Shown in pieces: positions 3,364 to 64,000 of a DNA stretch of 64,000 nt. Source of the DNA: Vulcanimicrobiota bacterium (GTDB lineage: Bacteria; Vulcanimicrobiota; Vulcanimicrobiia; Vulcanimicrobiales; Vulcanimicrobiaceae); the NCBI GenBank assembly GCA_003158175.1, contig PMHJ01000024.1:15316-79315 (forward strand), written 5' to 3'. Below the pieces are notes generated by a model. It was not told where the DNA came from. It saw only the letters and a program-made list of their open reading frames with translations, and ran no database searches. The first letter of the stretch is position 1; every line of letters begins with the position of its first letter. A program made the translations under genes and the position numbers.

Positions 3364-3391
3364 GGGACCGCTTGGCAGCGGCCCTTTTTTT
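3364..3391 (+). terminator. Rho-independent terminator after the small zinc-ribbon gene
   Basis: Stem GGGACCGC (3364-3371), loop ttggca, stem GCGGCCC (3378-3384) with a one-base bulge, then TTTTTTT (3385-3391). Confidence 0.55.
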
Positions 3392-3419
3392 GCGTTCCCC
3401 ACCGCTAGTGACGTATAAT
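3390..3419 (+). promoter_or_regulatory. Candidate sigma70-type promoter for nrdR
   Basis: TTGCGT (3390-3395), an 18-nt spacer, then TATAAT (3414-3419). This lies about 40 nt upstream of the proposed nrdR start. Confidence 0.4.
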
Positions 3420-3458
3420 ACGTTCGCCCACAAGATATGCCGTGGGGGAGACTTACCG

Positions 3459-21803: not shown

Positions 21804-21825
21804 GCGCTCGACTTCGCGCCGCGCG

Positions 21826-22560: not shown

Positions 22561-22565
22561 GTGGT

Positions 22566-23183
22566 CTACTTCTCCAAAACTTGCAGCCGGTTCAGCGGCC
22601 AGACGATCGCGAAGGCACGTCCTGTGAAACTGGCAGGCGCTTTGCCCCTCGCCAGCGGCCCGGCGGCGAAATCACCGTGCGTTTGCGCGAATCCCCAAAC
22701 GTGCGAGTCGTCGGAATAGTTCCGATTGTCGCCGAGGACGAAATAAAAACCGCGGGGAATTCGATTGGGCGCTTGCCACGAGGCGCGAGGCGGAACGTTT
22801 GCCGTTCGCGGATCGAGGGGATGGCCGTTGACGTAGATGCCGTAGTCTCGAATAGTGAGATCGTAGTTGGGCGCCTGGTTTTCGTACGGCTCCCGCAGAG
22901 CCGCACCGTTTCGATAAACGACGCCGTCTCGGATCGTAATGGCGTCCTCGGGCACGCCGATCACGCGCTTGACAAAATCGTTGCCGCCCGATTCCGCCGG
23001 TGGTATGAAGACGGCGACGTCACCATCGTGGGGAGGGTGCAGACGATAGGCGATTTCGTCGACCAGCAGCACGTCGCGGACTTGCAGCGTCGGCACCATC
23101 GAAACGGATGGGATGTAGAACGTGCGGATGACAAACGTGATCAAGAAGAGCGCGACGAGACCCGCGACGATGAGGGCGTCCAC
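22566..23183 (-). CDS. lepB: Signal peptidase I (copy 3); the N-terminus may extend to CTG 23270
   Basis: SVSMVPTL, FVKRVIGVPED, GDNRNYSDDSHVWGF. The frame stays open back to the rplS stop and encodes (L)TPLQLVGLLGLLTIARF, which parallels MTPYELLAIVAVIGAAR of copy 2. Confidence 0.88.
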   Translation of the reverse strand: MDALIVAGLVALFLITFVIRTFYIPSVSMVPTLQVRDVLLVDEIAYRLHPPHDGDVAVFIPPAESGGNDFVKRVIGVPEDAITIRDGVVYRNGAALREPYENQAPNYDLTIRDYGIYVNGHPLDPRTANVPPRASWQAPNRIPRGFYFVLGDNRNYSDDSHVWGFAQTHGDFAAGPLARGKAPASFTGRAFAIVWPLNRLQVLEK

Positions 23184-23279
23184 CGCGTCTCTCGCCGGCG
23201 CTTTTGCCGATAGTGCAAACCGAGCAATCGTTAAGAGGCCGAGAAGCCCTACGAGCTGCAGTGGTGTCAGAGCGGCGGG

Positions 23280-32415: not shown

Positions 32416-33584
32416 GCGCCGGTTCCCCCGCCGAGGAGCGCGCGAGCGATGACGGTCTTTTGAATCTCGTTGGTACCCTCTTCAAAACGTTGAGCGCGTG
32501 CGTCGCGATAGACGCGCTCGATGGCGTTGGGCTGCCAATATCCCGTGCCGCCGTGAATTTGAAGAGCTTTGTCGGTAACGCGAGTAAGCATCTCGACGGC
32601 CTGCAGCTTCGACATTGACGAGAGCATCGCGGCACGGGAACTGCCGGCTTCCCATTGCGTCGCGGCATGAAGTACTAACTGGCGCGCCGCCTCGATGTCG
32701 GTTGCATTCTCTGCGATCATGAAGCGAATTGCTTGGCGCTGCACGAGCCGCTTGCCGAACGTCTCGCGGTTGCCGGCGTATTCGATCGCCAGCTCTTGTG
32801 CTCGCCGCGCGAGGCCGACGCACGTCATTGCAACCGAGATTCGGCTGGGCGTCAAAAATCCGCCGAGCGCGATCTCGAGTCCTTGCCCTTCCTCGCCGAG
32901 TCGATTCTCTACCGGGACCGGCGTGCGGTCGAAGGTAAGGCGTCCGTGATCGGTTCCCCGCACACCCATCGACTCGTCCATCTGCATCACGGTGGCTCCC
33001 GGAGCGTGACGATCGACGAGCAGCGCGACCGTCCCGTCGCCACCGCGTGTCCCGGCGAGCCTCGCGAAGAGCAGCCAGTAATCGCAGATCGTTCCAAACG
33101 TGATGAGGTGCTTCTCGCCGCTCAAGTAATAGGTGTCGCCTTCGCGAACGACACTGCAGCGAAGATCGGCTCCGGTTCCCGCCGTCGGCTCCGTCAGCGT
33201 AAACGCAATCCTCAGCTCGCCTTTGATCGACGGAATCACGAATGCGCGGCGCTGCTGCGGCGTAGCAAAGCGGTCCATCGCCCGCCACGTGCCGTTGACG
33301 ACGTGCACGATCATCCGTATCGACGCATGCGACATGGAAAAGAGCTCGATCAGGCGGAGGTAGCGGGTGAACGGAATGCCGCGACCGCCATACTCGGTTG
33401 GGGCCGCCAGCGAAAGGTAGCCGCGATCGCGCAGCTCGTCCCAGAGCTCGAGTGGAACTCGGCGTTCGTTCTCGATGCGTTGTGCCCACTCTTCGGCGGG
33501 TCCGGCAACGTATGCGGCGATCTCGCTCTCGAGCGCCGCAAAGGCGGCTTCGTCGAAGATCTCGGGCCGGTCGAGCTGCTTCAA
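32412..33584 (-). CDS. Acyl-CoA dehydrogenase
   Basis: ACAD three-domain layout. C-terminal [17 protein letters not shown] places the catalytic Glu in context. TTG 33584 overlaps the upstream stop (TTGA). Confidence 0.88.
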
Positions 33585-36500
33585 GAGACGCTCGCCTTGC
33601 CGCGTTCGTGCGGTCGCAACTCTCTCGCTCGCTCGCGGAGCAGAAATTTCTGAACCTTCCCCGACGGCGTACGCGGAAGTTCGCCGACGATCTCCAGCCG
33701 CTCCGGCCAATAGTGTTTGGCGGCCTGGCACGCGTAAAGATAGTGCTGCATCCGGTCGAAATCGAGCTGTGCGCCGGCGCGCAGCACGACGAAGGCGCAG
33801 GCACGTTCGCCTAAGCGCGGATCGGGCATTGCGACGATCGCGATTTCGGCGACTGCCGGGTGATCGCTCAGCAGTTGTTCCATCTCGCCGACCGGAATTT
33901 TTTCACCGCCGCGATTGATGACGTCGCGTACTCGTCCGGTGATGCGAACGTATCCCGATTCGTCAATGACGCCGAGATCGCCGGTGCGAAACCAGCCGTC
34001 GGGCGTGAAGGCTGCCGCAGTCCAGTCGGGGTGATCGGCGTAGCCCACGAACATCGTCGGAGATTGCACTTCGAAGTGCCCTTCTTGCCCGGGCAACATC
34101 GTGCGGCCCTCAGCGTCGGCGATTCGAAGGTGAATTCCACGCAGTGCGCGCCCATCCGTTCCCCAAACCTTCGCCGGTTCGTCGGTCGGTGCGGAGAGCG
34201 ATCCCAAGCACGACTCGGTGGTCCCCCAAGCCCCGCAAACCGCCGTGCCGAGAATGCGCGTCGCACGTTCGGCCAGCCCGCGCGGCACCGCAGCGCCCGT
34301 TGCAACGAAGATGCGCAAAGCAGCCGGAGCGCGTTCGCCGCCCTCAACGGCCGCAACGAGATCGGCCAAGAACGGTGTGGCGGCCTGCACGAACGTGCCG
34401 TCCCAGTCGTTGAGCGCCCGCAGTGCGCGTGACGCGCTCCAGACCGGCTGCACGATCTGCGGAACTCCCATGAGCAACGCGAGCCACATTCCGTAGAGAA
34501 ATCCGGTTTGATGAGCGAGCGGAGACGGAACGAAGATGCGGTCCTCCGCTCGCAGGCCAAGATGCTCGATCTCCATTGCCGCGGCGCGCATCAGCACGTC
34601 ATTACGATGCAGTACGCCTTTGGGCTCGCCCGAGGTTCCGGAGGTGAAGAGCAGCTGCGCGATCGCTTCGGCATCGCTCGGCTGCGCGTCGAGCACCTTC
34701 CGATCGACCTCGATCGTGCGCAACGCGTCTTGGTAGCGCAGCCAGCGTACGGTGTCGTCGTAACCGGGCGTCGGAAGAGCGTAGGTGTTGCGCGCGCCCG
34801 CGCACACGACGACGTGCTCCAGCTTCAGCGGAAGATCGCCGCTAAAAACGGAGGCCTCCTGCAGAATGGACGCGATCTCCTCGGCGTGATTGCGGCCGCG
34901 CGCTTCATCGGGAACGAAGAGAACGCGCGCTCGGGAACGCCGCAGGCAAAAGGCGACTTCGCGTTCCCGGAAGATTGGCATCAGGGGGCAGCAGACGGCG
35001 CCGACGCGCAGCGTCGCAAGGGAAATAACGACGAACTCCAGGGTGTTGGGTAGCTGGTACGCGACTCGTTCGCCCGGACGTACGCCCAAACTCAGAAGAA
35101 GCGTGGCGGTGCGTTCGACTCGCTCGAGCAGCTCTTGCCAGGTGAGAGCGACGTCGCTTCCCTCGCGGGTTTCGACAACGGCGAGGCCGAGTGGGGTTTC
35201 GCGTGCGTGGTGCGCGAGCAGCTCGCCCAACGTCATTTGCGCGGCTCGATCGGGTTTTGGCATCGCCGCCGCCCGCGCTGCCGAATGCTGACCGTTGTGC
35301 GGCCCGTCGGAGATCGATAGCGAGACGCCGATGCTTCGCATCGCATCCAGAAAGCGAGGATACGAGATCCGGTACGCATTCGGATAAGTCAACGTACTCT
35401 GTCCCTGCGCGCGGGATGCGGCGACCGCCAACGACATCAATATGCGGTGATCGTTGAAGGACGAAAGATGTGCGCCTTGAAGCTCCGAGACGCCGTGCGC
35501 GACGAGCCGATCGTCGTGCAGCTCCAAGTGGCCGCCCATGCGATTGAGTTGCAGCATTGCGGCGACGCGGTCGGATTCTTTGAGGCGCACGTGTGCGATA
35601 TTTTCCAATACGGTTTCACCTTTTGCGAACGTGCCCAGCGTCGACAAGATGGGCAGCATGTCTGGAATGTCGCGGCAATCGACTCGAACTCCGCGCAGCT
35701 CGATGCCGGCGTGCCGTACGCGAACGGCGTGCGCCTGCGCGTCATACGCCATCGGGAGCCCCATCTCCCGAAGGATCTCCATAAATGCCCCCTCGGGATG
35801 GTCGGGAAGTTCTCCGGGCAGCGCTTGCAGACCGCGAAAGAGCACGTCCGAGGGATGGAGGGCCGTCGCGGCGAGCCCGAACGCGGCCGAGCCGATGTCG
35901 GGCGGCAGCTCGAGCGTCGCCGGACGCGGCCGCTGTCCGGGCTCGACCTCGAAACGCCGCCAATCCGGCGCGATCCTTACGTGCAGATCGAAAGCGCGCA
36001 TCATCTCGGCCGTTAGCGCGATATACGGGCGCTCGTTGAGTTCGCCTTCGACCTCGATGATCGTCGGTTCTTTCGTGAAGGGAGCCAGCAGAAGAAGGCC
36101 GGAAATCCACTGCGATAAGGTGCCGGGGATGACGATTTTCCCGCCGCGCGGCTGACCCGGAAACACGGTAATCGGCGGACAACCGCTGTTCGATTCGAAC
36201 GCAACGCCCATCTGAGAGAGCGCCGCAAGCAGCGGTCCGACGGGACGGCGCTGAAAATATTTTTGGGCGGTTAGCGTGACGGGCGAATCGGCGAGCGATG
36301 CCAACCCGATCATGAAATATAGCGTCGATCCGGAGCTGCCCACCGATACGACCTTGCGCTTGACGTGATAGGGGCCGCCCGCCACGAGCAACGTCTGGCC
36401 TTCCACCTCGATTTTCGTACCGAGCGCGCGCAACACGTCCATCGTGAACTGTACGTGACGAGCATCCGAAAGGCCGAGAATTCGGCTCGTTCCCGGCGCC

Positions 36501-36601
36501 AGCGACGCGAGAATGAGCGCGCGGTGCGCGTGATATTTCGAGTTCGGAACCTCGACCTCGCCGGTCAACGGCCCGCTCGTTCCTTTAACGAGAAGATTCA
36601 T
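33581..36601 (-). CDS. Fusion protein: EPSP-synthase (AroA)-like domain + AMP-dependent acyl-CoA synthetase/ligase
   Basis: Residues 1 to about 440 are EPSPS-fold (PNSKYHAHRALILASL, LKESDRVAAM, FNDHRILMSLA). Residues from about 450 to 1006 are an adenylate-forming enzyme (LLFTSGTSGEPKGV, GWFRTGDLG, PRTPSGKVQK). Confidence 0.9.
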   Translation of the reverse strand: MNLLVKGTSGPLTGEVEVPNSKYHAHRALILASLAPGTSRILGLSDARHVQFTMDVLRALGTKIEVEGQTLLVAGGPYHVKRKVVSVGSSGSTLYFMIGLASLADSPVTLTAQKYFQRRPVGPLLAALSQMGVAFESNSGCPPITVFPGQPRGGKIVIPGTLSQWISGLLLLAPFTKEPTIIEVEGELNERPYIALTAEMMRAFDLHVRIAPDWRRFEVEPGQRPRPATLELPPDIGSAAFGLAATALHPSDVLFRGLQALPGELPDHPEGAFMEILREMGLPMAYDAQAHAVRVRHAGIELRGVRVDCRDIPDMLPILSTLGTFAKGETVLENIAHVRLKESDRVAAMLQLNRMGGHLELHDDRLVAHGVSELQGAHLSSFNDHRILMSLAVAASRAQGQSTLTYPNAYRISYPRFLDAMRSIGVSLSISDGPHNGQHSAARAAAMPKPDRAAQMTLGELLAHHARETPLGLAVVETREGSDVALTWQELLERVERTATLLLSLGVRPGERVAYQLPNTLEFVVISLATLRVGAVCCPLMPIFREREVAFCLRRSRARVLFVPDEARGRNHAEEIASILQEASVFSGDLPLKLEHVVVCAGARNTYALPTPGYDDTVRWLRYQDALRTIEVDRKVLDAQPSDAEAIAQLLFTSGTSGEPKGVLHRNDVLMRAAAMEIEHLGLRAEDRIFVPSPLAHQTGFLYGMWLALLMGVPQIVQPVWSASRALRALNDWDGTFVQAATPFLADLVAAVEGGERAPAALRIFVATGAAVPRGLAERATRILGTAVCGAWGTTESCLGSLSAPTDEPAKVWGTDGRALRGIHLRIADAEGRTMLPGQEGHFEVQSPTMFVGYADHPDWTAAAFTPDGWFRTGDLGVIDESGYVRITGRVRDVINRGGEKIPVGEMEQLLSDHPAVAEIAIVAMPDPRLGERACAFVVLRAGAQLDFDRMQHYLYACQAAKHYWPERLEIVGELPRTPSGKVQKFLLRERARELRPHERGKASVS

Positions 36602-37943: not shown

Positions 37944-38915
37944 ATGAGGGAGGGAGCATGCGTCGAAGCGAGGATGGTGGAGCGAGGGGTAAACGTACCG
38001 CAGTCGTACCGCCTAGTGCGGCGTGACGCGCGGGGCGAGCGAACAATCGTACGTCTGAGGAACGGCGCCACTTTTGGCGGCGATGAGATCGCCATTTGCG
38101 CCGGCCCGTGCGGAGTCGAATCGCGCGAACAGCTCGAAACGGCGGCGGCCGCGGTGGCCGCCGCAGGAGCCAACGTCCTGCGGGGCGGCGCGTACAAACC
38201 GCGTACCTCGCCGTACTCCTTCCAAGGGCTCGGCGAAGAGGGGCTCAAGATGTTGCGCGATTCCGGCGATCGGCACGGCTTGGGCGTCGTTACCGAAGTG
38301 CTGGATCCGCGTGATGTCGAGAGGGTCGCGCGCTACGCGGATATGCTGCAGATCGGCGCGCGAAACATGCAGAACTTTCCGTTGCTGCGCGAAGTCGGCG
38401 GCCTGCGCATGCCCGTGCTTCTAAAGCGCGGTCTCTCGGCAACGGTGCAAGAGTGGCTGCTCGCCGCGGAATACGTGATGCTCGGCGGTAACGAGAGCGT
38501 CGTTTTGTGCGAACGTGGCGTCCGGTCTTTTGATCCCGCGACTCGCAACCTGCTCGACATCGCCGTCGTGCCTTTGCTCGAGGAAATGACGCATCTTCCG
38601 GTTATCGTCGATCCGTCGCACGCGATGGGGATCGCGCGTCTCGTTCCGCCGATCGCGGTGGCCAGCATCGCCGCCGGCGCGCACGGCCTTCTCATCGAAG
38701 TCCATCCCGATCCGGCCAACGCACTCTCGGACGGCGCTCAATCGCTGGATTGCGATCAGTTCGCGCTGCTCATGCGGCGATTGGCTGCCGTTGCAGAGTT
38801 TGCCGGACGCCGGCTTCCGCAGCACGTAAAACCCTCCGATGCCGCGCGTTCGAACGGTCAGCGTGAAGCCGACGGCGCCGTGCGATCGAGCAAGAGCGGC
38901 GTAAGGCTGGCGTAG
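37944..38915 (+). CDS. 3-deoxy-7-phosphoheptulonate (DAHP) synthase, type I-beta
   Basis: GPCGVES, LRGGAYKPRTSPYSFQGLGEEGLKML, LQIGARNMQNF, VIVDPSH. The start is ATG 37944 or ATG 37974. The 5' part of ORF 37821.. overlaps the KAS start. Confidence 0.88.
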   Translation: MREGACVEARMVERGVNVPQSYRLVRRDARGERTIVRLRNGATFGGDEIAICAGPCGVESREQLETAAAAVAAAGANVLRGGAYKPRTSPYSFQGLGEEGLKMLRDSGDRHGLGVVTEVLDPRDVERVARYADMLQIGARNMQNFPLLREVGGLRMPVLLKRGLSATVQEWLLAAEYVMLGGNESVVLCERGVRSFDPATRNLLDIAVVPLLEEMTHLPVIVDPSHAMGIARLVPPIAVASIAAGAHGLLIEVHPDPANALSDGAQSLDCDQFALLMRRLAAVAEFAGRRLPQHVKPSDAARSNGQREADGAVRSSKSGVRLA

Positions 38916-39601
38916 CCACCGTGCACCGCGCCGATGTCGGTGCCCAGCGTGTCGCGGTCGGTTTCGAAGGGCGATTCCCAGGCGCGATAATAGCGCGTCG
39001 CTCCTCCGCGATCTTCGCCCACCATTCGCCCGCAAATACGCTTTCGTCCTAAGCGCGTCGTAGAAATGCCGCGAATTGACGGCAGGGGGACGTTGGGAAC
39101 GTTTAAGTTCCAATAGCACGTCGTGTCTGCGAATCGTTCGAACTCGTGCTCGACACATCGATGGACGATCGCAGCGGCGGTCTCCCAGTACCGCAGGTCA
39201 AACGGCTCCTCGTGGTCGGACGCAAGCGAGACCGCTAGCGCAGGAATTCCAAGGAGGCAGGCTTCAACCGCTCCCGCGACGGTTCCGGAGTAGTTAACGT
39301 CGTCGGCCAGATTGGGGCCATGATTGATGCCGCTGATCACCAGCTCCGGTCGCGGCGCGAGCTCCGTCGATCCGAGGAAGACGCAATCGGCCGGAGTCCC
39401 CGAACACGCGTACGAGAGAACCTTGGCGGCGTGACGGCGTTCTACCGTGATCGCTTCGTCTGCCGTGATTGCGTGTGAGACGCCGCTCCGATCGCCGGAG
39501 GGCGCAACGACGACGATATCGTGGTCGTGGGCCATCACCTCCACGAGTGCTTCAATGCCGGGCGAATCGATGCCGTCGTCATTGGTGATGAGGATTCGCA
39601 G
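38858..39601 (-). CDS. surE: 5'/3'-nucleotidase SurE
   Basis: (L/M)RILITNDDGIDSPGIEALVEVM...SGVSHAIT. The conserved MRIL.TNDDG N-terminus falls on CTG 39601, 5 nt after the msrB stop. The ORF track's TTG 39799 start would overlap msrB by about 190 nt. Confidence 0.85.
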   Translation of the reverse strand: MRILITNDDGIDSPGIEALVEVMAHDHDIVVVAPSGDRSGVSHAITADEAITVERRHAAKVLSYACSGTPADCVFLGSTELAPRPELVISGINHGPNLADDVNYSGTVAGAVEACLLGIPALAVSLASDHEEPFDLRYWETAAAIVHRCVEHEFERFADTTCYWNLNVPNVPLPSIRGISTTRLGRKRICGRMVGEDRGGATRYYRAWESPFETDRDTLGTDIGAVHGGYASLTPLLLDRTAPSASR

Positions 39602-40747: not shown

Positions 40748-41974
40748 TCACACGGCGTCGTTGCGAAGGACGTCTTCGATGGTTTCGCGGCGCGCTAGCA
40801 ACCGGTGGGTGCCGCTTGCGATGGCCACGACGGCCGGTTTGGGGAAGCGGTTATAGTTGCCGGCCATGCTGTAGGTGTAGGCGCCGGTCGAGTGCATCGC
40901 GAGGAGATCGCCCGGGCCGACGTCACGCGGAAGCCGCATCGTTCCGAGCTCGTCGTTTTCACACGAACGGCCGCAGAGCGTTATCTCCTGGTCTTCTTCG
41001 TGCCGCGGCGTCACGGCGGTAACGTGGTAGCGCGCGCCGTAGAGCGCCGGTCGTGGATTTTCCGCAATACCGCCATCCACGACCACGAAGGTGCGATGCG
41101 ACTGGCGCTTCACGGCTAGGACGCGATAGAGCGTCGTGCCGGCGTCGGCGACGATGGCACGTCCGGGTTCGATCCCCAATCGGCGTATGCCGAGGCCGCG
41201 TTCCTGCGCCGCGCTGCGGACGCGCGATGCTGCGGCGGCGATGGTCGCGGTAACGTCGAGTCGTTCGTGCTCGCCTTTGGGATCGGAGGGGACACCGAAA
41301 CCGCCGCCGATTACGACCCGTTCGCTTTGCAGTCCGAAGGCTGCAAGCCGCTCGGCCGCCGCGACGAGGGCCGATGCGTTTTCCAAATAGGCCGACTCGT
41401 CGTAGATCTGCGAGCCGATATGAGCGTGCACGCCGGCGAAGCGCAGTTGCGGATTGACCGAGAGCAGCGACGCCGCGGCGCGTTCGTCCCGTGGATGGAT
41501 TCCAAACTTGCTATCCTTGCCGCCGGTGCGCACGAAGGCGTGTGTGCTCGCATCGACGCCGACGTTCAAGCGGAGCATCACGGTCGCCGTATGTCCGTCT
41601 CGTGAAATCTCCGCGAGCCGCTGGAGCTCCGCGATGCCGTCGACGGCGATACAGCCGATCTGTCCGGTGCAAGCGGCGGTCAGCTCGTCGTCGGACTTTC
41701 CCGCGCCGTGCAGCGTGATGCGCTCCGATTCGAATCCGGCTCGCTGCGCGGTCACCAGCTCGCCCAGCGAACAGACGTCGACGCCGATCGGGTAGCGGGC
41801 CAAGTAGCGCAAGAACTCAACGGTTGCAAACGCCTTGGCGGCGTACGAGACTTCGACGCCAAAATCCGTCGCACACCGTACGAGTTCGCTTAGGGTGGCA
41901 TCGACGGCGTCAAGATCGATGACGAGCAGCGGCGTGCCGTAAATCGTTGCGAGCGTCTCGGGGGACGGATTCAG
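40748..41974 (-). CDS. lysA: Diaminopimelate decarboxylase (fold-III PLP decarboxylase)
   Basis: YGTPLLVIDL, SYAAKAF (PLP Lys), HAHIGSQ, GGGFG, CGRSCENDE. The proposed start CTG 41974 overlaps the manA stop (CTGA). The only canonical alternatives, GTG 42115 and 42112, overlap manA by about 145 nt. Confidence 0.85.
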   Translation of the reverse strand: MNPSPETLATIYGTPLLVIDLDAVDATLSELVRCATDFGVEVSYAAKAFATVEFLRYLARYPIGVDVCSLGELVTAQRAGFESERITLHGAGKSDDELTAACTGQIGCIAVDGIAELQRLAEISRDGHTATVMLRLNVGVDASTHAFVRTGGKDSKFGIHPRDERAAASLLSVNPQLRFAGVHAHIGSQIYDESAYLENASALVAAAERLAAFGLQSERVVIGGGFGVPSDPKGEHERLDVTATIAAAASRVRSAAQERGLGIRRLGIEPGRAIVADAGTTLYRVLAVKRQSHRTFVVVDGGIAENPRPALYGARYHVTAVTPRHEEDQEITLCGRSCENDELGTMRLPRDVGPGDLLAMHSTGAYTYSMAGNYNRFPKPAVVAIASGTHRLLARRETIEDVLRNDAV

Positions 41975-43032
41975 AACTGCTCCATGAAGCGATCGACGGA
42001 ATCTTGCGGGATGCCCGCCGCGACGAGCTGGACCGGCAGGCGTTGCCGATCGTGCGGCGGCGTCACGAACATAAACGATGAAGTATCGCTTCCTGCTGCG
42101 CGGACCGTGCACCACTCCGCGGACGCTGGAATCAGCACCGTTTGATAGCGAGATAGCGTAACGGTGGATTCGTTGCTGGCCACTTCGAGCGGCTCGTTGA
42201 GGGACGTGAGGATCAGCGGGCGCCCGTCGGTCCGCATTGACCCGGGTTCGCCGGTTGCCACGATCCGCTCGACGACGAAATGCTCGTCGGCGATGAGCGC
42301 CGTCCGATCGAGGCCCTCGAAATGATAAGGGATCTGCAGAAGCGTCCCGGTCTCCATGGCCTTATAGTTCAGCACGTCGGCGGCCTTTTGCACGTGAAGT
42401 TCGCGCGGCTTACCGTCGAGACCGACGCGATTGTAGTCGAACATCCGATACGTGAGGTCGGAGGCCTGCTGAGTTTCGAAGATTGTCACGCCGGGCCCGA
42501 TCGCGTGGACGACCCCATGCGGAATGTAAACGGTATCGCCGGCTTTGAGATCGATCTTGCGAAGAATCTCGCCGAGCGTGCCGTCGGCGACGCGCTGCAA
42601 GTATTCCTCTCTCGAGGTGTCGCGCGTCCATCCGTAGATGATTTGGGCTTGCGGCTGGGCATCCAAAACGTACCAGCACTCGGTCTTTCCAAAAGGCTGA
42701 TGTTCGACGCGCTGCGCGTACGCATCGTCGGGGTGCACTTGCACCGAGAGCCAATCGTGTGCCGTGATAATTTTCGTAAGCACGGGAAAGATGCGCTTTG
42801 GATTGATGTCCCCGAGGAGCTTCGGGCCCAAGCGCATGCGCAGATCGGCGACCATACAGCCGGCCAACGCGCCGTTGAGAACTCGATCGGTATCCCAGCA
42901 TTCCCACGACTCGCCCAAGCGAGCTTGTGGATCGCCATGTTTGCCGTAGACCCGCACGAGCTCGTCGCCGCCCCAGACCTGCGTCGTTAGCTTCGGATCG
43001 AGGACGTACGGATAAAGGGGGAGGCTTTGCAT
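41971..43032 (-). CDS. manA: Mannose-6-phosphate isomerase, class I
   Basis: QVWGG, LSVQVHPDD, GKTECWYVL, YIPHGVVHAIGPG. Confidence 0.85.
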   Translation of the reverse strand: MQSLPLYPYVLDPKLTTQVWGGDELVRVYGKHGDPQARLGESWECWDTDRVLNGALAGCMVADLRMRLGPKLLGDINPKRIFPVLTKIITAHDWLSVQVHPDDAYAQRVEHQPFGKTECWYVLDAQPQAQIIYGWTRDTSREEYLQRVADGTLGEILRKIDLKAGDTVYIPHGVVHAIGPGVTIFETQQASDLTYRMFDYNRVGLDGKPRELHVQKAADVLNYKAMETGTLLQIPYHFEGLDRTALIADEHFVVERIVATGEPGSMRTDGRPLILTSLNEPLEVASNESTVTLSRYQTVLIPASAEWCTVRAAGSDTSSFMFVTPPHDRQRLPVQLVAAGIPQDSVDRFMEQF

Positions 43033-43094
43033 GGTCCGGCTACGATACGATAGGTTCGGTGGGAATTCCGCCAGCGGATAGAAGAGAGCTTACC

Positions 43095-44531
43095 GTGCAT
43101 GACCTTTATGTCGGCATCGGCTCGAACCTCGGCGATCGACAGGCAAACATCCTAGCCGCGCTGCAGCGCTTGCGGGCGCGCGCGCAGATCCTAGCCGTTT
43201 CGGCGTTTTACGAATCCGAGGCCGCCGGTGGGGCGCAAGGGCCCGCGTACTTGAACGTCGCGGCAGCGCTGCGCACGGAGCTCGATGCGCAAGCCTTTGT
43301 GAGTTTTGCGCGTGATGTGGAACTTGCGGTCGGCCGCGCGCGTGGAACGCGCCGGCTCGAGGCGCGCCCGATCGACCTCGACCTTTTGGTTTACGACGGT
43401 GCGATCGTACAGCCGCAGCTCGACGCTCGTCCGTATAACGCCGTGCCGCTCGCTGAGATAGCGCCCCAGCTCGTCGACATGCCGGCCTCGAACGGGCTTG
43501 TGCGGCGGCGGGAGCGCGGGTTGCGGTTCGATACCGATCGTCAATCGGAGGAGCCCGAAGTTCGGCTTTCACTTAGTCGCGCCGGCGTCTCGCGGGTGCG
43601 GCGGGTCGTTCATTTGGAAATCGACGGCCGTCCCGCGGTCTACAACGCCGAGTTTTCGATGGTCGCCGATCTCGCTGCGGACCGATCCGGCGTTCATATG
43701 TCGCGCTTTGCCGAAATTCTCGAGGAAGCGACGCTGGACGTGCTGGCCGGAGCAAACAGACCCGCCCGGATCGAACGGCTCGCCGAAGCGATCGCGCGTG
43801 AGATCGTGCAGAGTCAGCGTGCTATTCGGGCCGACGTGCGCCTGCGCGCCCGGTTCGGTTTGGAGCGATGGACTCCGGTCAGCGGAAAGCGCGGGGAAGA
43901 GACGTATACGCTCGTCGGCATAGCGCACGCCGATGAAAGCGGAACGCGGCGTATCGTCGGAGTCGAGGCCGAGGGCATGACCGCCTGCCCGTGCGCGCAG
44001 GCCATGGTGCGCGAGCATTCAATGCATCAGTTGATCGAAGCCGGCTTCAGCGAGGCCGACGCGCGGCGCGCGCTTGACGTGCTGCCCGTCGCAACGCACA
44101 ACCAGCGCGGTCGCGGCAGCATTCTCATCGGTGTACCCGAGGCGCAGACCGACGTCATCCGTGCCGAAGATCTCGTCGAAATCGTCGAAAACTCCATGTC
44201 GAGCGAAACGTACGATCTGCTCAAGCGGCCCGACGAGTTCTTCGTCGTTAACAAGGCGCATCACAATCCGAAGTTCGTCGAAGACGTCGTTCGCGGAATT
44301 CTCTTTCGCGCGCTCGAGATGTATGCCGATCTCGGCGACGACACGTTCGTATTCGCAAGCCAAATCAACGAAGAGTCCATCCACAAGCACGACGCATTCG
44401 CCGAAGGCTTTGGACTCTTCGGCGAACTGCGCGCAGAGCTGCGCAGCGGCTCGCACGAGATATCGAAGACCGATCTGGCAACCTGGCTTCGTACGCGCCC
44501 GTCCAAAATTACCATCGCCGAGGAAGTTTGA
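43095..44531 (+). CDS. Bifunctional fusion: HPPK (FolK) + GTP cyclohydrolase I type 2 (FolE2/MptA family)
   Basis: N-terminal VGIGSNLGDR...RPIDLDLLVY is HPPK. From about residue 190, GVHMSRF...MTACPCAQ...ATHNQRG..HKHDAFAE is FolE2. This is one uninterrupted frame. GTG 43095. Confidence 0.82.
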   Translation: MHDLYVGIGSNLGDRQANILAALQRLRARAQILAVSAFYESEAAGGAQGPAYLNVAAALRTELDAQAFVSFARDVELAVGRARGTRRLEARPIDLDLLVYDGAIVQPQLDARPYNAVPLAEIAPQLVDMPASNGLVRRRERGLRFDTDRQSEEPEVRLSLSRAGVSRVRRVVHLEIDGRPAVYNAEFSMVADLAADRSGVHMSRFAEILEEATLDVLAGANRPARIERLAEAIAREIVQSQRAIRADVRLRARFGLERWTPVSGKRGEETYTLVGIAHADESGTRRIVGVEAEGMTACPCAQAMVREHSMHQLIEAGFSEADARRALDVLPVATHNQRGRGSILIGVPEAQTDVIRAEDLVEIVENSMSSETYDLLKRPDEFFVVNKAHHNPKFVEDVVRGILFRALEMYADLGDDTFVFASQINEESIHKHDAFAEGFGLFGELRAELRSGSHEISKTDLATWLRTRPSKITIAEEV

Positions 44532-57997: not shown

Positions 57998-58293
57998 CGC
58001 GCAACCTTCCGGCCGTCTACGTCCTGGCCTGCAGCGATGGGTCGCTCTATACCGGAGCGACGGTCGACCTTGGGCGCCGTCTCGGCTCGCACCACCGCGG
58101 TACGGCCGCGAAATACACTCGCGGACGTCTGCCGGTCGCGCTTGTCGGATGGTGGCATCCCCCAACGTTCGCGCTTGCGAAATCGCACGAGGCGCGCTTC
58201 AAGCGCTTGCGACGCGCGGCGAAGCTGGCTGCGCTGCGCAGCGGCCTCGTCTATGGCTGCGTCGTTCATCGTCAGACTTCAAGCCAATCGTGA
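57985..58293 (+). CDS. GIY-YIG nuclease-family protein (UPF0213/YhbQ-like)
   Basis: VYVLACSDGSLYTGATVDLGRRLGSHHRGTAAKYTR. 102 aa. GTG 57985. Confidence 0.8.
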   Translation: MTDSSRNLPAVYVLACSDGSLYTGATVDLGRRLGSHHRGTAAKYTRGRLPVALVGWWHPPTFALAKSHEARFKRLRRAAKLAALRSGLVYGCVVHRQTSSQS

Positions 58294-59148
58294 GACGGAG
58301 GCATAGACGGCACGCGTCACCGCGTGGATCGCGGCGTAGGAAGCGGCGTAGTCGTACGCGTCCTTCGTCATTACCGCGAGGATGAACGGTGAGTCGCCGA
58401 ACGGGGCCACGACCGCGATGTCGTTGCGCGTTCCCTCGATCTCGCCGGTCTTGTTTGCAACCGGGACGTGCGGCGGCAGCGCCGCCGGGATGGCGTCGCG
58501 GTCCGTCTGACGTAGCATGATGTCGAGCATCGCTACGCAGTGTCGGGACGAAACGATGGTGGCAACTCCTTCGCGCGCACCGTGCTCGATCAGATAGAGG
58601 AGCCGGCCCATGTCGGCGGGCGTCGAGAGATTGTCGTTGTGATGCGCGATCGCAGTGTAGTCGAGAAAGCGGCGCGCGAGGTGCGTCCGCCTCATGCCCG
58701 CGCGGGCGCCGACTTCGTTGATCCTAGCGACGCCGAAATGTCCGATTAAGAGATTGGCCGCGGTGTTATCGCTCACCGTAATCATCGGAACGATCAGCTC
58801 GCGCACCGTGAAGCGCTGGCCGTTTCGCGCGTTCGCCATGAAATCCGAACCGCCGATGAGGTCGTCGCTGTCGAAGACGATCTTCTCGTTGAGGACTCCG
58901 GGCCGGGTTTCGTCGAGTGCATAGGCTGTCGTCATGATCAGTACCTTGATGATCGATGCCGTAGGGAATCGCTCGGAAGCGTTGTAGGCGGCCAGCGGCG
59001 GCCCCTCACCCAACGTGCGGGCGTAGACGCCGAGCACGCCCGGCAGCGCTCGCGCGACCGAGCTGATACGTCCGCTCAACGATGCCGCAACGGCCGGCAC
59101 GCCGACCAGCGCGGCGCCGGCGCAGCTCAGGAATGCAGCCCGCTTCAG
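58279..59148 (-). CDS. Class-A beta-lactamase-like serine hydrolase (secreted)
   Basis: SxxK (TASIIK), SDN (VSDNTAANL) and KTG (NKTGE). The start is either CTG 59148, overlapping the upstream stop as CTGA and giving MKRAAFLSCAGAALVG..., or ATG 59211. The rest of ORF 58279..59865 is an out-of-frame shadow of the permease gene. Confidence 0.8.
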   Translation of the reverse strand: MKRAAFLSCAGAALVGVPAVAASLSGRISSVARALPGVLGVYARTLGEGPPLAAYNASERFPTASIIKVLIMTTAYALDETRPGVLNEKIVFDSDDLIGGSDFMANARNGQRFTVRELIVPMITVSDNTAANLLIGHFGVARINEVGARAGMRRTHLARRFLDYTAIAHHNDNLSTPADMGRLLYLIEHGAREGVATIVSSRHCVAMLDIMLRQTDRDAIPAALPPHVPVANKTGEIEGTRNDIAVVAPFGDSPFILAVMTKDAYDYAASYAAIHAVTRAVYASVSRLA

Positions 59149-59939
59149 GAGCCGGTTCCCTGATAGTGGCGCAAGCCGAAGATCCAAAACGCGTACGCGG
59201 CGCCCAGCCATGCGAGCCCGATCGCCGGGGTGAGCAAACCGACGGCCGGATTGAGGTGCAGACCCGTTTCGGCCTTTTGCAGGAAGTACGTCGCCGGAAA
59301 GTAGTTCATGAACGCAAATGGCAGCACGAAGGCGAGGACGATCTGCACGCCGCGCCCGTAGATGCTGATCGGATATCTCGTGAAGTCTTGTTCGAGCGAC
59401 ATCACGACCCAGCGCAGCGTATCCACGCGAACGAACCAAAACGAGCAGGTCGCAATCGCCAATGAGATGCCCAAATCGATGAGCGCTCCGCCGAAGACGA
59501 TCGCCGGCACGAAGAGCGCGAAGACCCAGTCCGGGCGCACGCCCGCGACATGCGTGGCGACCGCGAGCGTGGCGATTCCGAGAATCAATCCGTCGGGAAC
59601 GATCTGCTGGGGGACGGTTAGCACCTGAAAGAGCGTGTCGAGCGGTCGCACCAAGAAGCGGTCGAAACGCCCCTCGCGAACGTATTCGGGAACGCTCACG
59701 ACCGTGAAAAACAGCGTGTTGTGCAGTTCGTGGCCGCACATCCAGAGCGCGTACAAGAAGAAGACATCCCGGAAGTTCCAGCCGTTCATCGATGGAAAGC
59801 GTTCCATCGTTACGAAGAGCGCTCCGAGCGCAACCCCGTGATAGACGATCGTAAAGACGAACCACATGATGAAGTTCGCGCGGTATTCGAGCATCGTGAG
59901 GAGGTTGATCCGCCAGTATTGCGCGTAGGCGCCGAGCAT
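59145..59939 (-). CDS. ABC-2 family transporter permease (DUF990-like)
   Basis: MLGAYAQYWRINLLTMLEYRANFIMWFVFTIVYHG... with six TM-like segments. ATG 59939. Confidence 0.8.
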   Translation of the reverse strand: MLGAYAQYWRINLLTMLEYRANFIMWFVFTIVYHGVALGALFVTMERFPSMNGWNFRDVFFLYALWMCGHELHNTLFFTVVSVPEYVREGRFDRFLVRPLDTLFQVLTVPQQIVPDGLILGIATLAVATHVAGVRPDWVFALFVPAIVFGGALIDLGISLAIATCSFWFVRVDTLRWVVMSLEQDFTRYPISIYGRGVQIVLAFVLPFAFMNYFPATYFLQKAETGLHLNPAVGLLTPAIGLAWLGAAYAFWIFGLRHYQGTGS

Positions 59940-60726: not shown

Positions 60727-60989
60727 ACGCCGAGCTCTGCGACCATATCGGAGAAGCGGGCCATCCGGCACCGCGAACGCCGCAAGGCTGCGAAGAGTGC
60801 CTAAAGATCGGTGCTACGTGGGTGCACTTGCGGCTCTGCTTAACCTGCGGTCAGGTCGGCTGCTGCGATTCGTCGCCCAACACGCACGCCACCAAACATT
60901 TTCACGCCACGAGCCATCCCGTTATCCAATCGTTTCAGCCCGGCGAACATTGGCGGTGGTGCTACGTTGACGAGATCCTAGCGCAATAG
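60723..60989 (+). CDS. UBP-type zinc-finger domain protein
   Basis: CEECLKIGATWVHLRLCLTCGQVGCCDSSPNTHATKHFHATSHP. ATGA overlap with the pirin gene. Confidence 0.8.
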   Translation: MNAELCDHIGEAGHPAPRTPQGCEECLKIGATWVHLRLCLTCGQVGCCDSSPNTHATKHFHATSHPVIQSFQPGEHWRWCYVDEILAQ

Positions 60990-61397
60990 GCGAAGCTCAC
61001 ACACTGACATCTTTCCGGGCACCGTGGTTCGCCACTGGCCGTTCCAGGTGCCGGCGTTCGCCTTGGCGACCTCTGGGCATTTCTTCTGCGCATCCGACTG
61101 GTTCCAGATAGGCCCCGCTTCGATCACTTCGACGACATATCTGTCCCTCGAAGGCGGCAGGCCCAGCTCGCAAACGGACATCCTGCCGGGTACCGTGGTC
61201 CGCCACTGGCCATTCCAAGTGCCGCCGTTCGCCTTGGCGACTTCAGAGCATTTCCGCTGCGCATCCGCCTGGTTCCAGATAGGCCCCGCTTCGACGGAGA
61301 TCGTCCTGGTCTGCGCCCGGGCAGTGGAAGGCACGGCGAGACAAAGCATTGCCGCGCCGGCAGCGAGGTTGAGGGCAATAAAACGATTGGTCTGCAT
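60978..61397 (-). CDS. Secreted tandem-repeat mannan-binding lectin (MVL-like)
   Basis: Signal peptide plus two 57-aa repeats AGPIWNQ(A/S)DAQ(R/K)KC.EVAKAN.GTWNGQWRTTVPG(R/K)MSVCEL. This resembles the AGPLWSN.EAQ...GQW.TVV...MSV repeat of the Microcystis viridis lectin. Confidence 0.75.
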   Translation of the reverse strand: MQTNRFIALNLAAGAAMLCLAVPSTARAQTRTISVEAGPIWNQADAQRKCSEVAKANGGTWNGQWRTTVPGRMSVCELGLPPSRDRYVVEVIEAGPIWNQSDAQKKCPEVAKANAGTWNGQWRTTVPGKMSVCELRLLR

Positions 61398-61418: not shown

Positions 61419-62216
61419 TTATCCACCTTGAATCACTACGCGGTTTGAAGCGGCGCGCCAAACCACCGAGGCCAGCGCCGCGAACAGCACGAGCCATAGC
61501 ATCTGCACCGCGATGCTGATCGCCCATCGAGCGGGCGGAATGACGCCGACGTAGATCAGCAGCGGTGTGGAATAAATCGCGGCGAACGGCAGCGCAAAGA
61601 CGAGGCGGCCAAAGATCCCCGGAAAAAACAACAACGGGATGATCTGGCCCGAGAGCAGGTCGGAGGCCCAGCGCACGATTAACTGCGCGGCGAAGGTCTC
61701 GAGCGTCCAGAATGCGATGCAGTTCATCAGAAAATTGAGAAAGAAGTTGACTCCGTAACCGATCAGAAAGGCCAGAAGAAATACCGCGAACGTTGCGGGC
61801 GATGGCACGTCGATGCGCACGAGCAGCAGCGCGCAGAGCAGCGACGGAACGACGAGCAGCGCGTGGAGCGCCGTTTGCCCGAGTCCGTCGCTAAAAAAGT
61901 AGAACGGCACGCTAATCGGCTTCATTAAGTCGGTGGCGATCGTCCCCTCACGGAGTTTTTCGCGAATGAGGCGTGTTGCATCCACTTCGAGGATCAGCGA
62001 CATCAGCATGGCCACCGTTGCATACGTGATCATGCTGTGCAGGGGAAGACCGACCGGCGCAACGTTCTGCGCGTAGAGCGCGGTCCAGAGCGAGCGCAGG
62101 ATATAGACTCGCAAGACCAGCGAGCCGATCTCGGTGAGAACCTCGATTCGATAGGTGGCCTCTCGTGCGAACGCCTTCTTCGCAAACGCGACGTACGGGG
62201 CGAGCGCGGCTTCCAG
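61419..62216 (-). CDS. ABC-2 family transporter permease (DUF990-like); the N-terminus extends to CTG 62216
   Basis: The ORF track starts at TTG 62114. The 34 in-frame codons upstream read (L)EAALAPYVAFAKKAFAREATYRIEVLTEIGSLV, clearly part of the protein, and contain no ATG, GTG or TTG. Confidence 0.8.
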   Translation of the reverse strand: MEAALAPYVAFAKKAFAREATYRIEVLTEIGSLVLRVYILRSLWTALYAQNVAPVGLPLHSMITYATVAMLMSLILEVDATRLIREKLREGTIATDLMKPISVPFYFFSDGLGQTALHALLVVPSLLCALLLVRIDVPSPATFAVFLLAFLIGYGVNFFLNFLMNCIAFWTLETFAAQLIVRWASDLLSGQIIPLLFFPGIFGRLVFALPFAAIYSTPLLIYVGVIPPARWAISIAVQMLWLVLFAALASVVWRAASNRVVIQGG

Positions 62217-62218
62217 AG

Positions 62219-62977
62219 CTAGTGGCCCTTTTGCCGTTTGATCGCGGCTTGGCGGCGGTGCTCCATCTCTTCCAGCTCGAGCATCATAACGTCGACGACC
62301 TTGTCGACTTCCGCGACCTGCGTCGGCGGCGGCTCTTCGCCCGATCGCCGCGCCGGCGGTTTGACGCTCCGATGTTCGTCGAGAACGACGTCTTGGGCGT
62401 GGGCTTTCCGCAGAAACTTGGAATAGGTCGCGGCGGCCCGGGCCCGCGCGTCCTGCGTCCCCTCGACGTTGAAGACGTCGGCGAAGAACTGCATCTTCGA
62501 GTGAACTTCGGGAGCCTTCTCCGGCGGATAGATCGTGGCCGGGTCGCCGAAGGCGATGTGCTGCATCGGTACGCTCTCGCCTTTGCGCAGACGGGTATTC
62601 ACGTGCACGATCCCGCCCAGCGCAACCGCGCTTCCATCCTCGAGTTTCGCTCCGTTGAAAATCTTCGTGCCGCTTGCCACGAAACAGCCGTCACCGATCG
62701 TCGCTCCGACGACGTAGGCCTGCGGACCCACGATGCAGTGGCTGCCGATTTGCAGCGGAAACTGCAAGACGCTTCCGCCGCTGGCTTTCAGAACGGCGTT
62801 TTCCATCACGACCGTATCGGCTCCGATCGTCACCGCCGCGCCCTCCGCAACGATGACGGCCCCGTGCAGCACCGCGCAGCCGGCGCCGATCGTCACCTCT
62901 CCGGCAATCGTCGCCGTGGGAGCGACGTACGCGCTCGAATGAACCTTTGGCTTTTTCGTTCCGCTGGACAGAATCAT
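62219..62977 (-). CDS. Left-handed beta-helix (hexapeptide-repeat, gamma-carbonic-anhydrase-like) protein with a charged C-terminal tail
   Basis: Hexapeptide repeats in SSAYVAPTATIAGEVTIGAGCAVLHGAVIVAEGAAVTIGADTVVMENAVL. The start overlaps the ATPase stop. Confidence 0.7.
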   Translation of the reverse strand: MILSSGTKKPKVHSSAYVAPTATIAGEVTIGAGCAVLHGAVIVAEGAAVTIGADTVVMENAVLKASGGSVLQFPLQIGSHCIVGPQAYVVGATIGDGCFVASGTKIFNGAKLEDGSAVALGGIVHVNTRLRKGESVPMQHIAFGDPATIYPPEKAPEVHSKMQFFADVFNVEGTQDARARAAATYSKFLRKAHAQDVVLDEHRSVKPPARRSGEEPPPTQVAEVDKVVDVMMLELEEMEHRRQAAIKRQKGH

Positions 62978-63906
62978 GACGCGCCCTCCTCCGGCCGCCG
63001 TTCGTATCCCTCGATGTAGATGCGTCGAATGATCGATTCCAAGTCGGGTTCCTCCAAGCTCACGTCTTCGACGCTATAGCGCTCACTCGCTTGCCGCACG
63101 AGGCGATCCGCTCGCACCAGGTTGCGATCGAATCGAAAGCGCGCGCTCGAGCCCTCGAGTCCGCTCAGCTGCGCCCCCTCGAGCTCGGGTTGCGCTACCG
63201 GTTCGCTAAAGCGCACGACGAGCGTACGGAACCGTCCGTACTCGCTCTTGATTCGATCGATGTCGCCGTCGTAAATGAGCGTCCCTCGATCGATGAGGAC
63301 GATCCGCCGGCAGAGACGCTCGACGTCGGCGAGGTCGTGTGTGGTCAAGACGATCGTCGCTCCGCGCTCGGCGTTGATTCTGGCGATGAACTCTCGGATT
63401 GCCTCCTTTGCAACCACGTCGAGTCCGATCGTCGGTTCGTCAAGATAGACCACCTTGGGACCGTGCAGGAGGGCGGCAGCGAAATCGCCGCGCATCCGTT
63501 GGCCCAGGGAGAGCTGACGTACCGGCGTGTTCAGGAAATCGCTCATTTCGAGAATGTCGACGAACTCGTCGAGGTTTCGCCGGTAGCGGTCTGGCTGAAT
63601 GCCGTAGATCGCCCGAAGGAGCTCGAACGAGTCGATCAGCGGCAGATCCCAATAGAGCTGACTTCGCTGGCCGAAGACCACGCCGATGTTGCGAGCGTTC
63701 TCCTTGCGGCTTTTCCACGGAACCAATCCTGCGACGCGCACCTGGCCCGACGTGGGAACGAGAATCCCGGTGAGCATCTTGATGGTCGTGGACTTGCCCG
63801 CGCCGTTGGGGCCGATGTAGCCGACGAGCTCGCCCGGCTCCAACGCAAAGGTGACGTCGCCGACGGCGACGCGCTCCTCGTATTCGGGCGAAAAGAGGGA
63901 GCGCAA
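62974..63906 (-). CDS. ABC transporter ATP-binding protein (5' end uncertain, at or beyond 63906)
   Basis: GPNGAGKSTT, LSLGQRMR, VVYLDEPT. The frame is open upstream to the window edge and reads ...PIVEARDLRKVFRTVKRTPGALGA. The true start is therefore CTG 63981 or lies outside the window. Confidence 0.85.
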   Translation of the reverse strand: MRSLFSPEYEERVAVGDVTFALEPGELVGYIGPNGAGKSTTIKMLTGILVPTSGQVRVAGLVPWKSRKENARNIGVVFGQRSQLYWDLPLIDSFELLRAIYGIQPDRYRRNLDEFVDILEMSDFLNTPVRQLSLGQRMRGDFAAALLHGPKVVYLDEPTIGLDVVAKEAIREFIARINAERGATIVLTTHDLADVERLCRRIVLIDRGTLIYDGDIDRIKSEYGRFRTLVVRFSEPVAQPELEGAQLSGLEGSSARFRFDRNLVRADRLVRQASERYSVEDVSLEEPDLESIIRRIYIEGYERRPEEGAS

Positions 63907-64000
63907 CGCGCCGAGGGCTCCCGGCGTGCGCTTTACGGTGCGAAAGACCTTACGGAGGTCGCGCGCTTCAACGATTGGCAGGACACCGCGATTCGTCGTT

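Follow-up and report, generated by a model that had tools for sequence, protein, structure and literature searches.

How a gene with no ATG, GTG or TTG at its 5' end comes to be translated is the question raised by permA, an ABC-2 permease gene on the minus strand of the 64-kb window analysed here (64,000 nucleotides of contig PMHJ01000024.1, from an uncultured soil bacterium; G+C ~63%), whose closest protein homologues carry the source names Candidatus Eremiobacterota (Vulcanimicrobiota), Baltobacteraceae, near Ca. Cybelea. We consider it highly likely, from sequence comparison, that permA is intact and translated from a CUG at 62216-62214, that the same solution recurs at other genes, and that CTG acts here as a weak fourth start codon. 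Together with permA, at least four or five other genes of the window appear to begin at CTG, a habit that would be common to many related species. The best reading of these data is genuine but weak CUG initiation that is mostly translationally coupled and lineage-specific.

The permA N-terminus precedes the first canonical start codon

The permA coding sequence spans 61419-62216 (minus strand; 265 codons plus stop). Its open frame begins at 62690 and runs to the stop at 61419, and direct reading confirms what a sequence-only reading of the window had claimed, namely that no ATG, GTG or TTG occurs from 62690 until the TTG at 62112-62114, the codon chosen by gene callers, which gives a truncated 231-aa product. 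The candidate initiation codon, CTG 62214-62216, also lies where that reading had placed it, 2 nt past the stop of the upstream hexapeptide-repeat gene (62219-62977, minus strand; Pfam Hexapep). On the minus strand the junction, …AAAAGGGCCACTAGCTCTG…, runs in the order TAG 62221-62219, CT 62218-62217, CTG 62216-62214, and a Shine-Dalgarno-like AAAAGGG (62226-62232) stands 9 nt before the CTG; its strength, measured as duplex energy with the anti-Shine-Dalgarno sequence, is -4.6 kcal/mol, compared with -2.9 kcal/mol for background sequence. Translated from the CTG, the frame reads LEAALAPYVAFAKKAFAREATYRIEVLTEIGSLV, and the 33 leader codons that separate the CTG from the first canonical codon (62115-62213) encode a conserved N-terminus, EAALAPYVAFAKKAFAREATYRIEVLTEIGSLV.

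That this N-terminus is genuine, as had been proposed from its resemblance to a paralogue, is borne out by the homologues. The product matches PF06182 (ABC2_membrane_6; E = 4.4e-20), with residues 44-264 covering profile positions 11-229 of 229, and so does the paralogue permB (59145-59939). All 120 of the closest homologues carry PF06182 (257-280 aa; 96-100% cover; 79-95% identical), and all 120 contain the block PY.EFAKKAFAREATYR.EVLTEIGSLVLRVY, ahead of which their starts lie by 0-8 residues. The nearest of them, P0001 (95% identical), begins MEAALAPYIAFAKK where the window reads LEAALAPYVAFAKK, so that its Met aligns with the window CTG. A coding-potential start, defined as the maximal-scoring suffix of the open frame under codon-usage log-odds, falls exactly at 62216. 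When the leader was pooled over ten CTG-bearing species, the proportion of synonymous differences (pS) was 0.38 and that of nonsynonymous differences (pN) 0.067, a pN/pS of 0.18. Leader conservation, suffix start and pN/pS together mean that, in the genomes that lack a canonical start, the permA leader codes for protein and is subject to purifying selection. One prospect that could have overturned the idea, namely that the extra residues are unconserved, thus did not materialize: they are conserved, and orthologues place ATG, GTG or TTG there.

These results bear directly on the gene callers' solution, translation from the first downstream canonical codon (TTG 62114 in permA, GTG 23183 in the third signal peptidase I paralogue, lepB3), with the upstream residues as untranslated leftovers. 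Callers' output does take this form, at 231 aa for permA and, in relatives, 205 aa for lepB3, and the coding-potential start of lepB3 is placed near 23189. Against it stand the 33 permA leader codons, kept in 120 of 120 homologues at the pN/pS given above, and the suffix start at 62216, as well as the behaviour of lepB3 in relatives described below; we regard this solution as very improbable.

No start codon would be needed at all if permA were fused to the hexapeptide-repeat protein through a -1 frameshift before the TAG. The upstream gene ends ...CA_A_AAG_GGC CAC TAG, in which A_AAG_GGC formally fits a -1 slippery heptamer, and permA lies in the -1 frame. The heptamer, however, occurs in the window only, CTG-bearing relatives reading CAA AAA GGC or unrelated sequence, and in two of them (L042 and L044) an in-frame TGA stands two codons ahead of the permA CTG. 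A frameshift would also leave nrdR unexplained, since that gene is not preceded by another on the same strand. We rejected a programmed -1 frameshift at A_AAG_GGC because the slippery heptamer is unconserved in relatives, and we give such a fusion next to no credence.

CTG interchanges with canonical start codons in permA relatives

The permA start was compared across 80 species-representative genomes with 10 kb of flanking sequence each, in which the block was found in 77 loci. In the window and these 77 informative loci, the nearest start-like codon is ATG in 18, GTG in 17 and TTG in 17; CTG is the only one in 21, ACG the only one in two (L063, L075), ATT (L026) and ATC are found in one each, and one locus (L041) has no start-like codon. 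The 20 other species that, like the window, have only a CTG carry it at the same position or 2-5 codons downstream. Within alignment columns -6, -4 and -2, CTG and ATG/GTG/TTG interchange. Column -6 is CTG in the window, L001, L002, L005-7, L009, L010, L042, L044 and L054, GTG in L004, L008 and L037, and TTG in L011-14, L016 and L022; column -4, which reads M/V/L-N-L-E-P-Y in many loci, is CTG in L024, L028, L029, L043 and L058. Of 26 genomes that lack ATG, GTG and TTG within 10 codons of the block, 21 carry a CTG in that interval, where chance would give 28% (P = 3e-8).

Control columns behave differently from start columns. An ordinary Leu column mixes TTG, CTG, CTC, TTA and CTA, and a neutral NTG column mixes codons, non-NTG ones included. 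The lineage uses CTC more than CTG (40.6 vs 32.0 per 1000), and CTC never occurs at start columns. An automated start-column tally over 160 loci was kept for controls only; its frame choice and homology boundaries are unreliable, since conserved genes that overlap also appear conserved when read in a shifted frame.

nrdR probably uses CTG independently of any upstream gene

The sequence-only reading had listed six further genes as sharing this situation, two of them as possible cases. All of its coordinates proved right, the support being very strong for nrdR and good for lysA, surE and lepB3; a beta-lactamase-like gene is a probable case, and an ABC ATPase gene could start at CTG or ACG.

In nrdR (3459-3902, plus strand), position 1 of the NrdR equivalog model TIGR00244 falls on CTG 3459-3461, two residues before the zinc-ribbon CxxC. 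The Shine-Dalgarno sequence GGGGGAG (3444-3450) lies 8 nt before the CTG and pairs at -8.4 kcal/mol, and a perfect TATAAT is found upstream at 3414-3419. Because nrdR has its own upstream region with the TATAAT, a palindrome and GGGGGAG, we take it to be uncoupled. This region, the divergent dprA-nrdR intergenic stretch at 3368-3446, includes a terminator-like hairpin with a T7 run (3368-3391) and an NrdR-box-like palindrome before the Shine-Dalgarno sequence; the position of the palindrome suggests that nrdR may regulate itself. A sigma-70 promoter scan upstream of nrdR passed no -35/-10 pair, leaving the TATAAT and the terminator-like hairpin as its only features.

Across 77 metagenomic loci of the lineage, the nrdR start column is CTG in 61, GTG in 6, ATG in 5, TTG in 3 and ATA in 2. 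The CTG is therefore aligned with an ATG, GTG or TTG in 14 loci and is never replaced by CTC, CTT, CTA or TTA, even though CTC is the commonest Leu codon of the lineage; start codons replace it, synonymous Leu codons do not, and the Pro, Thr and Cys codons next to it show free synonymous variation. At least 12 loci have an in-frame stop 1-6 codons upstream of the CTG and no canonical codon. Shine-Dalgarno pairing averages -7.2 kcal/mol at nrdR CTG sites and -4.3 to -5.8 kcal/mol in canonical-start orthologues.

As a wider control we used 150 NrdR sequences, each representing a cluster at 50% identity and nearly all belonging to other lineages. In this set 107 start M/V-x-CxxC, and 33 are N-terminally extended, with M or V at the aligned position in 27 and L in four, two of the four being members of the lineage itself. 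Met or Val thus occupies the start position in 134 of 140 (96%) and Leu in ~3%. The nrdR CTG pattern is, as far as these comparisons reach, lineage-specific, and the earlier suggestion of a lineage-level peculiarity holds for nrdR; it does not hold as a uniform rate, since several gene families have 0-2% CTG at the start column.

The persistence of these codons also addresses whether the CTGs could be decayed starts of pseudogenes or barely expressed genes, or sequencing or assembly errors. The genomes of the relatives are all metagenome-assembled, some at low coverage, and L002 has apparent frameshifts elsewhere. Identical CTGs nevertheless recur in independent assemblies, platforms and studies (palsa, SMAG, SPRUCE, MFD and JGI metagenomes), and sequencing error is disfavoured because the CTG genomes stem from unrelated projects and platforms; the error that the sequence-only reading had offered as a way of disproving its own claim is thus not what we find. 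Decay is contradicted by a protein identity that exceeds nucleotide identity, by the constraint on the permA leader, and by an nrdR CTG that is kept across loci whose NrdR is only ~78-80% identical to that of the window, while neighbouring synonymous sites vary. Error or decay strikes us as a barely tenable account.

lysA, surE and lepB3 probably begin at CTG close to an upstream stop

In lysA (40748-41974, minus strand), the start CTG 41974-41972 forms a CTGA overlap with the stop of a mannose-6-phosphate-isomerase-like gene, and GGAG lies 5 nt upstream. At the junction GGA GCA GTT CTG A, the CTG is shared by 15 close loci, L176 and L178-180. L176 (73% identity) has it without a canonical alternative; in L178-180 (68% identity) conceptual translation from the CTG gives L-T-P-V-P-T-W-K-G-D-L-A-P-G-Q, which lines up with M-T-x-x-P-x-W-x-G-x-L-A-P-G-Q in ATG-called homologues. 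The NCBI LysA entry P0242, which starts MNPSPE, is encoded from CTG in L161; being annotated from CTG, it shows that the NCBI pipeline has already accepted this lysA start in one genome. At the corresponding junction of L177, a 68%-identical relative (~9880-10000), the sequence is ATT CTA A, in which ATT is the only near-cognate candidate.

The surE start, CTG 39601-39599 (gene 38858-39601, minus strand), lies 7 nt after the msrB TAA, and position 1 of NF001489 falls on it. The CTG is shared by 11 relatives, L175 and L176 among them, and the column is ATG in L177. Because the upstream frame differs in L175 and L176, the TTG 15 codons ahead of the CTG is not retained in frame.

For lepB3 (22566-23270, minus strand), the start CTG 23270-23268 follows the rplS TGA by 9 nt, with no canonical codon between that TGA and the conserved peptide LTPLQL(V/I)GL…. 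L178 (65% identity) keeps this peptide through mostly third-position, synonymous changes and has a TAG two codons upstream, and the downstream GTG 23183 favoured by gene callers reads GTC in L181 and L188. The gene is one of three signal peptidase I paralogues in tandem after rplS (21294-23270, minus strand), an arrangement kept in L178 and L181-L190.

In contrast to permA and lepB3, where no compatible canonical codon exists, four of the genes have in-frame upstream codons that could give extended NrdR, SurE, LysA and beta-lactamase-like proteins overlapping the preceding genes: GTG 3408, TTG 39646, GTG 42115, and TTG 59187 or ATG 59211, respectively. Many database entries are called in this way, and a TTG 13 codons upstream is present in eight of eight CTG-bearing beta-lactamase-like genes. 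The extensions, however, are unconserved in sequence and length, and relatives have stops or no codon at all there (nrdR in L088, L093, L106 and L138; lysA in L176; surE in L175 and L176). The nrdR candidates lie in or upstream of the TATAAT box and terminator-like hairpin, and the profiles place position 1 on the CTG for nrdR and surE. We judge upstream canonical starts to be improbable, and return to CTG as the start of these genes.

A probable case and an ambiguous one

The class A beta-lactamase-like gene (58279-59148, minus strand) probably starts at CTG 59148-59146, in a CTGA overlap with the permB stop, with TTG 59187 as the alternative. Its orthologues have GTG in 50, ATG in 5, TTG in 1 and CTG in 7 plus the window at the start column, the CTG occurring in at least three clades. 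In the overlapping permease codon the variable base falls at a third position where changes are synonymous, so that only the start codon constrains it. The in-frame TTG 59187, 13 codons upstream of the CTG, is fixed by Phe-Trp codons of the overlapping gene. This TTG is present in all eight CTG genomes vs ~53% of the others, a difference that is not significant as a test of compensation for CTG, because the CTG genomes form only about three independent clades.

The ABC ATPase gene (62974-63999, minus strand) could start at CTG 63981-63979, six codons from the end of the window, or at ACG 63999-63997, and would be non-canonical either way. All of 47 species have the CTG, and 16 distant ones have ATG or GTG in its place. 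An ATG or GTG six codons upstream of the CTG, behind a well-spaced Shine-Dalgarno sequence, is also present in most species, and at this position of the sister species the window clade has ACG (63994-63999; L002-L004, L006, L059). ACG may thus serve occasionally as a start codon, in the ATPase clade as in permA of L063 and L075.

How common CTG starts are, and whether the lineage is unusual

To place these genes in context, stop-to-stop translations of the ~63 genes in the window were compared with NCBIfam models, and each doubtful N-terminus was inspected. Counting ~14 genes just outside the window, which were read in near-identical relatives and are all canonical, there are 6-7 CTG genes among ~77. 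In the remaining window genes, among them several with ATGA, GTGA or TTGA overlaps, an ATG, GTG or TTG stands at the position predicted by the model or the orthologues. Coding potential had pointed to further non-canonical starts (mannose-6-phosphate-isomerase-like gene 43086, fabF 37925 and others), which were rejected since relatives and profile models show ATG, GTG or TTG. Start columns of other families have little or no CTG: the hexapeptide-repeat gene has ATG 59, GTG 17 and CTG 0; permB has ATG 54, GTG 8, TTG 2 and CTG 0; a panE-like gene has GTG 32, ATG 23, TTG 2 and CTG 1; and a hemQ-like gene has ATG 33, GTG 9, TTG 1 and CTG 0. Because start-column CTG is rare in these families, CTG usage is gene-specific.

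This uneven distribution leaves one live alternative, which concerns the cause of the CTG starts and not the fact of them: CTG would initiate in an otherwise ordinary lineage, through T-to-C or A-to-C drift of start codons at coupled genes, as in any deeply sampled high-GC bacterium. Five of the six CTG genes overlap an upstream stop or lie within 9 nt of it, GTG outnumbers CTG by 50 to 8 at the beta-lactamase-like NTGA, where N is synonymous for the overlapping gene, and the families with 0-2% CTG fit as well. Drift does not easily account for the uncoupled nrdR, which is 79% CTG in the lineage vs ~3% Leu in the 140 wider representatives, half of those few being lineage members; nor does it readily give 6-7 CTG genes in ~77, far above the ~0.05% or less that annotated non-canonical starts make up in total in model bacteria (10.1101/063800). 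We hold drift to be unlikely, if far from negligible, and continue with a lineage-specific acceptance of CTG.

Several observations weigh against that acceptance. All of the compared genomes are metagenome-assembled, and the trait is not uniform, CTG being absent or at most 2% at the start column of several families. The surE CTG is essentially without a Shine-Dalgarno sequence (-1.7 kcal/mol), and in-frame canonical codons lie upstream, inside the preceding gene, for the beta-lactamase-like gene and for lysA and surE of the close clade. Three permA orthologues lack even a CTG (none in L041; only ACG in L063 and L075), so that either a non-CTG codon can serve there or those permA genes are impaired. 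Finally, neither the window nor the fetched loci contain an initiator tRNA, infC or 16S rRNA gene.

A model of coupled and uncoupled CUG initiation

Start and stop geometry suggests how a weak codon could suffice. Relative to the upstream same-strand stop, the start lies at +2 nt in permA, +7 in surE and +9 in lepB3, and lysA and the beta-lactamase-like gene have the CTGA overlap; five of the six CTG genes thus begin -4 to +9 nt from an upstream stop, with nrdR uncoupled. The ribosome-binding context is moderate Shine-Dalgarno pairing for permA, lepB3 and the beta-lactamase-like gene; surE has none, but sits 7 nt past a stop. Translational coupling of permA is likely because its CUG is 2 nt past the stop and behind the weak Shine-Dalgarno-like AAAAGGG. 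We envision that a ribosome terminating on the hexapeptide-repeat gene would re-initiate at the nearest acceptable codon, the permA CUG, which the initiator tRNA would read as Met despite the first-position mismatch. At coupled genes a weak start codon would be enough, as ribosome delivery would not depend on start strength, and termination-reinitiation may operate also at lysA, surE and lepB3, and probably at the beta-lactamase-like gene. The nrdR CUG would work uncoupled, from its own promoter region and with a strong Shine-Dalgarno sequence, CTG being its majority and long-conserved state; the weak start may hold the repressor at a low level, much like the weak starts of infC and pcnB (reviewed in PMC2830850). 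Overall, CTG would be a weak fourth start codon of these Baltobacteraceae / Ca. Cybelea, used by ~1 gene in 10 of the region.

We infer initiation with formylmethionyl-tRNA at CTG, ribosome supply by coupling, and a more permissive initiation machinery. The occasional ACG or ATT at start columns (permA of L063, L075 and L026; lysA of L177; the ATPase gene) hints at generally relaxed start selection. A more specific version, which we put forward tentatively and at somewhat less than even chances, is that relaxed proofreading, through IF3, the initiator-tRNA anticodon stem or the 16S P-site, makes CUG a regular start for several percent of genes and ACG or AUU an occasional one, with the nrdR CUG fixed as a device that sets the repressor level.

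Known systems provide partial parallels. In E. coli, CUG initiates at 1-2% of the AUG level (10.1101/063800); it pairs weakly at the first position with the initiator anticodon CAU, and in the anticodon-stem variant M1 of the initiator tRNA an altered G30-C40 pair lowers discrimination against CUG (PMC11497404). These reporter and tRNA studies offer a mechanistic basis for CUG initiation, although both are engineered systems (10.1101/063800; PMC11497404). Known examples of termination-reinitiation at overlapping or close gene pairs use ATG, GTG or TTG (ATGA, GTGA, TGATG) (for example PMC10666635). permA, lysA, the beta-lactamase-like gene, surE and lepB3 share the stop/start geometry needed for such coupling (PMC10666635), whereas the restart codon here is CTG (CTGA, TAGCTCTG) and coupling is predicted from geometry.

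The closest precedent is the conserved rpsL CTG of Deinococcus-Thermus. In Deinococcus deserti and this group, rpsL and Deide_03051 start at CTG, dnaA at ATC and infC at ATA, as confirmed by proteomics (Baudet et al., PMC2830850). As here, a whole lineage keeps the CTG of a housekeeping gene, rpsL, which automatic annotation missed, and such starts were recognised from conserved N-terminal residues upstream of any canonical codon (PMC2830850). The Deinococcus cases differ in having N-terminal proteomics and in numbering four genes per genome, while the present ones are 6-7 other genes in 64 kb with comparative evidence only. The regulatory weak starts of E. coli, AUU (or AUA) in infC and AUU in pcnB (as summarised in PMC2830850), resemble nrdR in that a conserved weak near-cognate start sits on a regulatory gene; nrdR is likewise a regulator, with a strong Shine-Dalgarno sequence. 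They differ in that the product of infC, IF3, itself senses the infC start, and in that the nrdR start is CUG, with a first-position mismatch. CTG initiation itself is a known rarity; what is new is the density of CTG starts and the CTG in ~79% of nrdR orthologues. We found no literature report on start-codon usage in Eremiobacterota.

Consequences for annotation and for initiation fidelity

The expectation that standard gene callers would mis-annotate these genes is borne out: the permease is called 34 residues short, and database entries for NrdR and LysA are widely wrong at the N-terminus. Among the 120 closest NrdR entries (P0121-P0240), ~74 have unconserved N-terminal extensions and six lack the zinc ribbon; many LysA entries (P0241-P0360) are truncated by 15-98 residues, with P0242 annotated from the CTG. 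If ~1 gene in 10 starts at CTG, callers limited to ATG, GTG and TTG would give wrong N-termini across a candidate phylum, and such errors spread to protein families, structure prediction, signal-peptide calls and metabolic reconstructions. Routine acceptance of CUG, if true, would be a natural experiment on initiation fidelity (IF3, the three initiator-tRNA G-C pairs, 16S G1338/A1339) and would bear on how far coupling relaxes start-codon selection. That the ribonucleotide-reductase repressor keeps its CUG suggests that the weak start acts as a regulatory set-point.

Neighbouring genes and other features of the window

The hexapeptide-repeat gene (62219-62977) belongs to the LbH type and is gamma-carbonic-anhydrase-like. 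It overlaps the ATPase gene (which ends at 62974) by ATGA, and in 77 of 80 species it has the ATPase gene on one side and the permease gene on the other. Located 1.4 kb off, permB (59145-59939), the second permease gene, is paired with the beta-lactamase-like gene. A hexapeptide gene between ATPase and permease, with permB nearby, is an unusual layout for an ABC-2 transporter. Also adjacent, 60978-61397 (minus strand) encodes a 139-aa secreted protein with two copies of a ~55-aa Cys-containing repeat (consensus …GPIWNQxDAQxKCxEVAKANxGTWNGQWRTTVPGxMSVCEL), which had no match in NCBIfam.

In the closest metagenome-assembled genome, palsa_1505 (L002), the thiolase open reading frame (ORF) at 1944-2981 covers only profile positions 1-250 of 400 and the MFS transporter gene at 6386-8063 is broken into two ORFs; both breaks probably represent frameshifts or misassembly of this genome. 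Elsewhere in the window, a 1006-aa ORF (33581-36601, minus strand) fuses an EPSP synthase (aroA, residues 14-425) to an acyl/cyclohexanecarboxylate-CoA ligase (445-990) and is kept in relatives. It adjoins genes for a fabF-like synthase, DAHP synthase, acyl-CoA dehydrogenase, FabL-like reductase and OYE flavoenzyme, a neighbourhood that could be a shikimate-derived biosynthetic cluster. On the plus strand, HPPK (folK) and an MptA/FolE2-type GTP cyclohydrolase are fused in a single ORF at 42879-44531.

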